A DNA stretch of 28,285 nt, from the IMG/VR virus record IMGVR_UViG_2850761752_000007. One strand, 5' to 3'. A program made the position numbers. Of this stretch, positions 15,001 through 18,000 are shown in pieces (within the stretch, counting starts at the first letter, position 1; the number at the start of each line of letters is the position of its first letter). This DNA comes from a virus. Taxonomy: Duplodnaviria > Heunggongvirae > Uroviricota > Caudoviricetes.

Positions 15001-18000
15001 CGGCAAACTGATTACCACGGGATTCGGTGATCGCAACGCTGCGCAGCAGTCCGGGCGGCAGGTTATATTTTTCCTCCAGTTGAGACAGTTTCGGTTGCAG
15101 CCAGCCTAACAGGGCTTCCCCGGTCTTCGTCGGTCGCTGGCGGTTTTGCATGGCATTACCGAGTTTTTCCTGCGTCGCACGCATACCCTGTAGCCAGGAT
15201 TCACCGAAGGCTGCTTCCCTCCCGGTTGCCTGAGAAGCCTGAGTATCCAGCATGCCCTGCTGCCATACTGTGGGTGATTGTGCCCGGGTGATGTTGCCAG
15301 GCTTTTCTCCGACATCCAGTTTTGTCTGATACGTCTCCATCTCTTTCTTATTGAAAAAGAAAGTCCCGTCTGAAGCCCAGAAAAAACCATGTGAATCCAG
15401 CCAGTCCTTATTTTCCCTGCCAACAATGGATGTCAGTAATCCGTCAACAACCGGGTAAAGCGCCGTTATCGCAAAAAGAAGGCCTCCGGGGCCACTGAGG
15501 GCTTTTGTCAGCCCCCGCACCCATGACGCCACTTTCAGCCCGATCAGCGTAATAATGACATTCTGCCAGCCCCCCAGTTCTCCGGCAGCCTTATTCGCCA
15601 GGGAGGCCACTGACTCAACGTCATTCAGAAATGTGGTGATAAACCTGTTCACTTCCTCCGGATGTTGCTGCATCCAGTCACCGAGTGTCTCCAGCCAGTG
15701 GCTGAGCTTCAGCGCGTACGGCATCAACGCGGTGCTAATCGTCATCCCGATGCCGGACCAGGTCTGATCGAGCTCAACAAGCTCTTTTCGTAGCTTACGG
15801 GCCAGCGCTGTACGCCCCGGCGTAACCTGCGAACGGGAAGTAAATTCGTCCACATCTTTCAGCGCATGACCGGAGCCAAGAAACTGCTGTCCGGCATAAC
15901 TGAAGCCCAGCGCGTTGCCGTAGGCAGTTTGTTCGGACTTTGTCAGTCGCGGAAAAATAACCGCCAGCTTGCGCATGATGGCTTCAGTGCTGTCAGTATT
16001 TAAATCAACACTAATGCCCGCCCTGGCTGCAACCTGAAACAAATCCTGTAACACAGGATCAAAGGACCTTCCGGCTCTGAAGGCCGCTTTTGCATTTGCA
16101 AGCCGGGAAAATGCCCCAGACATTTCCCCTTCATCAACATTATTTGCCCGCGCAGCCCGTAACCATCCGTCCAGATTTCTGGCCTTCATGCCAAAAGCAT
16201 CGGATTCCACGGACAGACGGTTCAGATCACGGGCAAAACCTGTTACCAGGTTCTTCAGCCCCCCCAGCGTCAGACTGACACCCGCAAGAGCCAGAATCTC
16301 GCTACGGATCCCTGAAAAAAAACGGGACGCCCGTTTCCCGGCATCTTCCATTCGACGGGCCGTTTTATCAGCATCTTTTCCGGTTTTTTCCAGTGATTCA
16401 CTGGTTTTCTTCTGTCCCTGACTGAATGTGTCAGCGACACCTTCCATCACCGTCGTGAGCCGGTTAAGGGCAGCATGTACTGCCTGTTCCCCGGCAGTAA
16501 AGTCCCTGTCATCAATCCCGAGGGACAGAACAAGCTCATCAAGTACCTGCGCCATTTCTGTTCTCCTGTATCACCTGTTCGTTATGGGCATCCACATGAA
16601 TTATTTCCAGCAGATCCCATAAGTCCTGCACACCAAGGACAGAATCCAGTTCAGCTTTTGAAGCCTTACCGGAGGAGATAACGGTCGCAATGGTACGGGG
16701 AACATTAACGTAATCCACCACCCCGAACGGTCTGTCGGGGTCGAGATAACGCGGGGGGATATCTAGCTGACGACGGTAGCGAAAAAATCCACATGCAGCT
16801 TAAAGACCTCCGCACGCAGATTAAGACGGGTAATGATTTCTTCAATATCCTCTTCAACAAGCGGTCTCCGGATGCTGCGTTTTTTCGGATCGGGAACAAA
16901 CTGCACACAGTCCATCATGAGGTGTACTGGCAATAGCGGACACTACCATTTGTTCTTTTTTTAAGCAGCCATCTGATGATATTTTTCCCTGAAGGCTGCC
17001 GGGGAGATATTCCCCAGACGAGAGTGACGACGCTGACGATTGTAGAAAATCTCAATGTATTCCCGTATTACTGAGATGGCTTCATCCCGGTTATTAAAAC
17101 GATAGTGGCTCAGGCTCTCATTTTTCAGCGTTCCCCAGAAGCTTTCCATCGGAGCGTTGTCGTAACAGTGACCTTTACGCGACATTGATGTTTTCAGACC
17201 AGACTGCTCCTGTATGACCCGGTAATCGTATGCGCAGTACTGTGAACCTCGATCAGAGTGGTGGATTAGCCCGGCAGGTGGGCGCTGGCTCCTGAGCGCC
17301 ATAAACAGGGCTTTACCTGTCAGCTCTTTTGTCATGCGCTCTCCCATGGCGTAGCCGACAATTTCGCACGTATAAACATCTTTGATGCCAGCGAGGTACA
17401 ACCATCCCTCCTGTGTGGCAACATACGTCAGGTCCGCCACCCAGACCTGATTTGGTGCTGTAGGAGCGAACGTCTGGTTCAGCAGATTTGGCGCAACTGG
17501 CAGATTGTGGTTCGGGTTCGTAGTCGCTCTGAACTTGCGTTTCTGCTTACAGCGTAGCCTTAGCTCCTTACGAAGACGTGCCAGTCGGTCACGACCAACG
17601 ATGATGCCATTCTCTGCCAGCTCCGTCTGGAGCCGCCGGGTTCCATATGTTTCGCGAGTGCGGATATGTGCCACCTTAATATCCAGTTTTAGCCGCTCAT
17701 CACTTTGTTTTCTGTCTGAGGGTTCATGCTGTACCCAGTTGTAATAACCGCTCCTGGATACACCAAATACCTGACACATCGCTTCAATGGGAAATTGTTG
17801 TCGCCATTGTTCGATTAACGCGTATTTTTCAGCGACTCCTGTGCAAAATACGCTGTTGCTTTTTTTAATATATCTCGCTCAAGGCGAGCTTCATTTAACG
17901 CCTTACGCAGTTGCAGAATTTCAGATTCCAGTTCAGCCACCGTGCGGGAACCAGGAGTACCGAGCCCTTTTCTGGCGGCGGTAACCCATTGTCCTAAAGT

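Follow-up and report, generated by a model that had tools for sequence, protein, structure and literature searches.

The principle of the G/GT tail assembly chaperone has been reviewed (PMC5009743) and restated (PMC3483164). In phage lambda, its products are gpG and gpGT (Levin et al. 1993; Xu et al. 2004, 2013, 2014); binding to the tape measure protein is the role of the G part, and the T part brings in the tube protein (PMC5009743). A comparable arrangement is described here for a stretch of viral DNA of 28,285 nucleotides (nt) from a member of the Caudoviricetes (IMG/VR record IMGVR_UViG_2850761752_000007). This whole stretch is referred to as the window. We read the region just upstream of its tape measure gene as the 3' part of a tail assembly chaperone gene of a myophage. 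On this reading, the region carries a programmed -1 ribosomal frameshift site and is a non-functional relic; the probability of this is put at about 85%. The gene in the original (0) frame is called G, and the extension in the -1 frame is called T.

The products of the present pair are presumed to have roles like those of gpG and gpGT. Lambda, however, is a siphophage, whereas the present family is of the myophage type, has a U run (tRNA-Phe) at its predicted slip site and shows no sequence similarity to lambda. The 30:1 ratio of the lambda products and their binding partners are known, whereas for the present family they can only be inferred. The lambda slip site is G_GGA_AAG (tRNA-Gly and tRNA-Lys), and the shift reportedly needs no RNA structure (a result attributed to Levin et al. 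1993).

Phage P2 has a myophage chaperone pair, gpE and gpE+E', encoded between the tube gene (FII) and the tape measure gene (T), as is the present pair. The P2 features given here are taken from the RefSeq record NC_001895. Frameshifting was shown by experiment in P2 (Christie et al. 2002, as summarised in PMC3931495), whereas in the present family it is predicted from sequence. Both cases imply a -1 shift on a T6 run, at GGT TTT TTG (T_TTT_TTG) in P2 and at GAT TTT TTC here, so that the last base is G in one and C in the other. The 0-frame stop follows 6 codons past the site in P2 and 5 codons past it here, and the extension reaches into the tape measure gene by 8 nt and 17 nt, respectively. 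P2 E has 91 amino acids (aa) and an extension of ~56 aa, compared with 134 aa and 80 aa in the present pair. As here, the second frame of P2 has no ribosome binding site of its own and only a possible GTG start. Sequence homology to P2 E+E' was searched for with hhalign, using an 11-sequence GT alignment, and was not found (probability 0.5%, E=0.11). Judged by these comparisons, the element is a close match to E/E' of P2 in its arrangement and would work like it but stands outside its sequence family.

A distant true homologue is present in the lytic Burkholderia phage BcepB1A, where gp15 E and gp15' E' (AY616033.2) were deposited as "pre-tape measure frameshift protein". The identity is 24% over the conceptual fusion, in which RYRRQ... 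of the -1 frame is attached to G ending at ...HVDFF. This fusion also served as the tblastn query against the phage collection, and the T part of BcepB1A was found by tblastn. BcepB1A has T_TTT_TTC in the same register and at the same place, between a tube-like gene and the tape measure gene. Its 0 frame, however, runs ~40 codons past the slip site rather than 5, and the present element belongs to an enterobacterial prophage.

The following features make up the frameshift region of the window, in the order in which they are read on the minus strand:

16918..18181, minus strand: IS600 copy of 1264 bp (orfA 17815..18117, orfB 16961..17779), delimited by repeat comparison.

16763..16917, minus strand: 3' remnant of the chaperone gene G in the 0 frame, comprising the last 51 of 134 codons and TAG, 100% identical to positions 9002..9156 of the intact prophage locus described below (L001).

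16802..16800, minus strand: TAA, the last -1-frame stop before the heptamer, 5 codons upstream of it, from three-frame translation.

16787..16781, minus strand: slippery heptamer T_TTT_TTC (TTTTTTC) in the codons GAT TTT TTC, in the 0-frame register by direct reading of the sequence.

16539..16781, minus strand: T segment in the -1 frame, 80 codons long (RYRRQ...GAGT), with CGC at 16781 as its first codon and TGA at 16541..16539 as its stop, from translation.

14534..16555, minus strand: tape measure gene (673 aa), from the list of open reading frames (ORFs), of the same length as the gene in the intact prophage.

A preliminary description, made from the window alone, had proposed a G/GT-type frameshift at this place, and its account of the layout proved accurate: the heptamer lies where it was claimed, the upstream frame terminates five codons later, and the -1 frame stays open for the ~80 codons that had been estimated and overlaps the tape measure start. 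The minus-strand ORF 16763..16933 ends with ...CAT GTG GAT TTT TTC GCT ACC GTC GTC AGC TAG; thus, five sense codons (GCT ACC GTC GTC AGC) follow the heptamer before the TAG at 16765..16763. A shift would be productive within a stretch of ~10-11 codons, bounded by the -1-frame TAA and this TAG. The end of the T segment overlaps the tape measure gene, with its ATG at 16555, by 17 nt. Relatives of the latter are annotated with a lytic transglycosylase domain, as tape measure or as SLT proteins. In the version of annotation pipelines, the T segment is a separate ORF of 60 aa with a GTG start at 16721.

The closest intact version was found in Escherichia coli. Eight complete E. coli genomes match positions 16918..16400 of the window at 99.6-100% and lack the insertion sequence (IS), and positions 16918..16203 are 100% identical to an intact prophage of E. 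coli CFSAN029787 (locus L001, in NZ_CP011416). This strain carries ipaH and a large plasmid typical of enteroinvasive E. coli, and the matching region is part of a complete myophage-like prophage. The gene order in this locus is sheath (DUF3383), tube (8306..8752), the 134-codon G (8752..9156), a 60-codon "hypothetical" ORF (9198..9380) and the tape measure gene (9364..11385, annotated as "lytic transglycosylase domain-containing protein"), followed by baseplate genes, fibre genes and ipaH. Comparison with an intact gene had been proposed as a check, and it places a complete chaperone gene between the tube and tape measure genes, with a -1 ORF that extends to 9380, beyond the tape measure start at 9364. 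The comparison also bears out the truncation that had been suspected from an ORF beginning 3 nt from an IS600 end: the ATG in question, the second in frame, is at 16915 and the IS600 copy occupies 16918..18181, homology to the prophage begins at 16918, and 51 of the 134 codons are left.

The intact protein of 134 aa matches PHROG 1932, "tail assembly chaperone" (E=3e-59), and the -1-frame part matches PHROG 3976 (E=5e-32). The predicted junction is spanned by PHROG 18181. Searched as DNA, the phage collection matched the region at the IS600 end only, so that no phage in it is close at this level. A Pfam search with G and GT and a sequence-profile search of PDB gave no match.

The evidence that carries the assignment is the conservation of the site together with the two-frame layout. 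A 5-sequence alignment retrieved 80 related loci from IMG/VR, at 60-100% identity and with 53 distinct G-T sequences. T_TTT_TTC/A/G is found at nucleotide 381 of the gene, in the same codon, in 52 of these 53; the single exception is a pseudogene with an in-frame stop at codon 33. In six distinct sequences (L082, L085, L088, L090-L092), the -1 frame opens exactly at the heptamer, and the stretch for a productive shift is 8 codons. Among isolated phages, tblastn gave matches in two pieces and two frames for Pantoea PA-1, Burkholderia phiE058, Pseudomonas Orimi01, Aeromonas vB_AsaM-56, Edwardsiella GF-2 and some Acinetobacter AP22-group phages, and likewise for Klebsiella prophages. Most AP22-group records, including AP22, were matched by the G part only. 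Matches in one piece were obtained for the Bcep781 group and for Ralstonia Bakolyvirus phages.

The second ORF is in the -1 frame in all relatives examined. The tetramer U_UUU (NNT TTT) is universal, being present in eight isolated phages of eight host genera, in the intact E. coli prophage and in three metagenomic contigs. The eight isolated phages also show the order tube, chaperone, tape measure. Together with the PHROG 1932 match, the recurrence of site and layout in these phages and in 52 of the 53 distinct relatives upholds the proposed G/GT-type site in a tail assembly chaperone gene. In the phages examined at the nucleotide level, AP22 included, the -1-frame extension past the site has 72-88 codons, and in most phages checked its end is no more than ~20 nt away from the start of the tape measure gene. 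In BcepB1A, 48 nt separate the extension from this start, which lies downstream of it. In phiE058 (L004 2114-2605) and in an unrelated member (L094, 2114-2605), a gene for an HNH homing endonuclease follows the T frame and precedes the tape measure gene, so that the otherwise overlapping genes are split.

The sites read as follows:

T_TTT_TTC: E. coli prophage, PA-1, BcepB1A.

T_TTT_TTA: Orimi01, GF-2, AP22.

T_TTT_TCT: Aeromonas phage 56 (L007).

T_TTT_CTC, alternatively G_GGT_TTT: phiE058 (L004).

T_TTT_GTA: Klebsiella prophage (L006).

T_TTT_TCT (L093, L097) and T_TTT_ATA (L095): three metagenomic relatives, with proteins ending HVDFS or HVDFI.

In these three metagenomic relatives, the upstream sheath and tube genes carry the Pfam domains E217_gp31_N and E217_Gp32, which points to a tail module of the Pseudomonas phage E217 type.

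Selection at the nucleotide level was analysed on 41 distinct sequences. Over the 120 nt upstream, every one of the 40 third codon positions varies (mean variability 0.43), whereas the two third-position Ts of the heptamer (GAT, TTT) are the same in all sequences. The last base of the heptamer is C in 93% of the sequences. Among shift-prone tetramers in E. coli, U_UU.Y ranks second after A_AA.G (PMC4066793), and the preference for C fits this proneness. In the stretch that follows the G stop and precedes the annotated start of T, variability is 0.43 at the third position of the -1 frame, compared with 0.21 and 0.25 at the other two. This peak argues that the stretch is translated in the -1 frame even ahead of any start codon. 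The peptide encoded just past the site, (F)F-x-R-R-x-LDIPP, is conserved.

A joined polypeptide exists in nature. Bcep781 gp47 (170 aa) and gp36 of Ralstonia phage Adzire (186 aa) are each encoded by one uninterrupted ORF without a slippery run (PHROG 18181). Identity to the conceptual fusion of 209 aa is ~28-30%, with 29% over residues 13-197 (Bcep781) and 6-196 (Adzire). The alignment is colinear across the junction (LHVAF-LTDREPLDIP versus LHVDFF-RYRRQLDIPP, with the shared motif LH(V/A)xF...LDIP/ELP), from which the existence of a joined G-T polypeptide follows, and the T segment aligns with the C-terminal half of both proteins. In Bcep781 (L011 1522-2441), gp47 is directly followed by a separate G-like gene, gp46, which matches G with E=2e-7; gp46 and gp47 have no detectable similarity to each other (E=1.4). 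Adzire (L010 1495-2462) has a 136-codon gene at the position equivalent to gp46, and both phages have one more gene before the tape measure gene. In Bcep781 at least, two genes seem, from their sequences, to replace recoding as the source of both products.

The preliminary description had named a single uninterrupted chaperone ORF in homologous phages as an argument against a frameshift. Such ORFs do exist in Bcep781 and Adzire, so that in its literal form this objection applies. We do not count it as a refutation, because the single ORFs are colinear with the fusion across the junction, a G-like gene (gp46) adjoins in Bcep781, and all closer relatives have the two-frame layout.

In the intact phage, most ribosomes would translate the 134-codon gene and stop at its TAG. 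A minority would slip back by one base, with tRNA-Phe on the U run (U_UUU_UUC), and would then read the 80 codons of the -1 frame. A fusion product of ~209 aa is predicted, in which the two parts meet at ...HVDFF|RYRRQLDIPP.... On the lambda model, the N-terminal part common to both products may coat the tape measure protein, and the C-terminal extension may recruit the tail tube protein. That a short and a frameshifted long product are both made has indirect support in the natural single-ORF homologues. The sequence-level features by which Xu, Hendrix & Duda (2004) characterise the G/GT type are found in this family: gene position, a slip site within the overlap, a second ORF in the -1 frame without a start signal of its own, conservation, and membership in a chaperone family. 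Gene position is seen in the intact prophage; the window keeps only the tape measure side, the tube side having been lost to IS600.

Stimulatory elements of the kinds described for other sites were not found. Stimulated -1 sites of the dnaX or IS3 type have a hairpin or pseudoknot 5-9 nt downstream or a Shine-Dalgarno-like sequence 6-17 nt upstream, and neither is present here. A search for a downstream stimulatory structure had been suggested in the preliminary description; none was detected by single-sequence folding, by RNAalifold or in Rfam, which gave no match at the site and only a sub-threshold isrK match elsewhere. The A-E-V codons upstream of the heptamer contain a GGAGG, whose end is 19 nt away from it. 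This distance is outside the range of 6-17 nt taken as effective for upstream Shine-Dalgarno-like stimulators (PMC4066793), and its conservation is inseparable from that of the protein-coding sequence. Some relatives have a CCCCC...GGGGG hairpin, which was rejected as a candidate: it starts ~22 nt after the heptamer, stems from the I-P-P codons and is not conserved. As neither a conserved RNA structure nor a well-placed Shine-Dalgarno stimulator was found, the slippery sequence alone apparently suffices, which resembles lambda G/GT and P2 E/E', and an efficiency of a few percent would be expected.

Several results speak against a programmed ribosomal frameshift. The 131 nt downstream of the site fold no better than shuffled sequence (z 0.04), and RNAalifold on 12 relatives returned 0 conserved pairs. 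Among close relatives, no database protein covers both halves, so that a fusion at the protein level is not on record there. Some relatives have the tetramer only (T_TTT_GTA, T_TTT_ATA, T_TTT_TCT). The U6 run could also permit slippage of RNA polymerase. The heptamer by itself is unremarkable: TTTTTTC occurs 22 times in the window, in-register heptamers of the form XXXYYYZ account for 0.57% of codons in 11 long window ORFs, and one would be found in the productive stretch by chance with a probability of ~4-6%. The significance of the heptamer thus rests on its conservation in relatives. The relic status has its own counter-evidence, an in-frame ATG-ATG at the IS600 junction, which is taken up below.

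The relatives with the tetramer only, which include the isolated phages Aeromonas vB_AsaM-56 and Burkholderia phiE058 and none of which has a stimulatory structure, suggest that the mechanism may be slippage of a single tRNA and not the classical tandem slip. The codon that follows in one of them (L095), ATA, is rarely used by enterobacteria. We tentatively consider a broader scheme, which is rather doubtful at present: the family may use unstimulated slippage of a single tRNA-Phe at U_UUU, the heptamer would merely tune efficiency, and the Bcep781/Bakolyvirus branch would have swapped recoding for two genes, one G-like and one encoding a fused GT-like protein.

Among the other explanations, transcriptional slippage fares best, yet it is improbable. 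RNA polymerase would add one U at the T6 run, and the resulting message (GAU UUU UUU CGC) would encode the same fusion protein. Homopolymeric U and A runs are a known substrate for such slippage, and U7 and A7 are avoided in E. coli genes partly for this reason (PMC4066793; PMC5009743). However, the run has 6 nt here but only 5 in Aeromonas phage 56, L093 and L097, and 4 in phiE058, Klebsiella and L095, and the two-frame layout is kept in all of them. Runs of 4-5 nt are generally too short for efficient polymerase slippage, yet they still allow tRNA-Phe to re-pair on U_UUU. Furthermore, the run keeps strictly to one register with respect to the 0 frame, and register matters to ribosomes but not to RNA polymerase. 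The slipping machine is, in our view, the ribosome.

It is very unlikely that recoding is absent altogether, with T being an independent small gene that starts at GTG 16721 (60 aa, WP_000228829) and the T run being incidental. This is how PGAP and several phage annotations treat the region, giving T a coding sequence of its own; a GTG GTG pair is indeed present at 16721..16716, and the missing record of a fused protein in close relatives would agree with it. However, no Shine-Dalgarno sequence precedes the GTG, and the first possible start codon of the T frame wanders among relatives from +27 to +156 nt, often falling inside the conserved T domain and again without a Shine-Dalgarno sequence. 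It lies 120-156 nt past the slip site in phiE058, BcepB1A, L072, L073 and L074, which is downstream of the point that the conserved NVPxTIA motif occupies in the E. coli sequence (~+78 nt). Moreover, R-R-x-LDIPP, encoded upstream of the GTG, is conserved with the codon periodicity of the -1 frame, and the natural single-ORF homologues include the stretch upstream of the GTG.

A chance arrangement or a decayed gene, whether a single ORF broken by a frameshift mutation or a sequencing error, would agree with the modest rarity of the heptamer, with the heavy decay of the prophage in the window (including other frameshifted genes) and with the single ORF of distant relatives, yet it is extremely improbable. 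An identical layout in two frames, its T run always placed at the same codon, recurs in 52 of 53 distinct sequences and in isolated, viable phages, among them Pantoea PA-1, Aeromonas vB_AsaM-56, Edwardsiella GF-2 and Acinetobacter AP22. Such a recurrence is not expected from mutation or error, and the synonymous Ts in the run are invariant.

The ribosomal frameshift site thus assigned is almost certainly silent in the window. The IS600 copy removed the first 83 codons of the chaperone gene, its start and everything upstream, and nothing in the window matches the prophage sequence upstream of L001 position 9001 (tube, sheath, neck and head genes). A complete coding sequence, a native start and an intact tail operon, as expected of a functional gene, are lacking in the window. 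With its gene beheaded and the prophage unable to build tails, the signal is to be seen as a relic and not as a working frameshift. The gene is presumably not expressed: a promoter scan around the junction of IS600 and the chaperone gene found no promoter-like site. Read-through from IS600, or translation of the remnant from the junction ATG-ATG, is a more remote possibility.

Further features of the window document the decay of the prophage:

6067-7327, 16918-18181, 19461-20724 and 25261-26523: four IS600 copies in 28 kb, 99.7-99.9% identical.

13828-14537, minus strand: baseplate protein gene, split into ORFs of 157 aa and 129 aa by a 1-nt deletion at ~14179 (relative to L001 11741).

~9846-13504: IS66-family element, with a 530-aa transposase (11029..12621, DDE_Tnp_IS66, E=8e-95) and small upstream ORFs.

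In E. coli genomes, the annotation of this IS600 sequence reads "IS3-like element IS600 family transposase". On its far side, the copy at 16918-18181 adjoins an unrelated gene of the Rha/Ash family (18241..19080). The head, sheath and tube genes were probably lost by recombination between IS600 copies. The place of the IS66-family element is taken in the intact prophage by genes for baseplate hub, spike and J. An exact search of the species-representative genome collection for the junction of IS600 and G gave no match, and the junction is also absent from the complete E. coli genomes; the numerous IS600 copies and ipaH point to Shigella or EIEC.

The window also contains an ipaH-type gene (2499-4141, plus strand) with a NEL E3 ligase domain (E=4e-77) and LRR. 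It appears to be divided between two ORFs that overlap and differ in frame, 2499..2801 and 2798..4141, and may be a frameshifted pseudogene. A pair of inverted repeats of 769 bp is present at 23420-24188 and 26804-27572; its size fits that of IS1, which we take to be 768 bp. A direct repeat of 375 bp (22315-22689 and 27911-28285) lies beside an ORF with an IS3-family integrase core (22716..23441). Both repeats are further IS debris.

Some E. coli records have an 84-aa protein (P0001, MWIFSLPSSARYPPRYLDPD...), in which an ATG ORF of the +1 frame is joined to the T frame. This joining implies that a C tract just after the chaperone stop (window positions 16753-16758, C6, minus strand) is one base shorter in these records, which may reflect true variation or a mistake in sequencing or assembly.

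G/GT frameshifts upstream of tape measure genes have been textbook phage biology since 1993-2004, and the scientific weight of one more case is small. Within the present protein family, the frameshift was already recognised through the BcepB1A annotation, but closer relatives are not so annotated: in enterobacterial prophages and in isolated phages of Pantoea, Aeromonas, Edwardsiella, Acinetobacter, Pseudomonas, Klebsiella and Burkholderia (phiE058), annotation either treats the two parts as "hypothetical proteins" with no relation to each other or leaves out the second one. A search of the literature on the AP22 group, which did not extend to vB_AsaM-56 and GF-2, turned up no paper describing a chaperone frameshift. 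A better annotation would be a single chaperone gene with -1 ribosomal slippage at T_TTT_TTN.

For the source genome, the remnant is one more marker of a decayed, IS-riddled, ipaH-linked prophage that is unable to build tails. Modestly interesting by-products are the plastic slip motif, of which U_UUU alone is invariant, and the apparent two-gene alternative in Bcep781/Bakolyvirus phages. If the tentative scheme of unstimulated single-tRNA slippage with a switch to two genes in one branch were true, the family would be a natural series for how the G:GT ratio is set and for how recoding is gained or lost.

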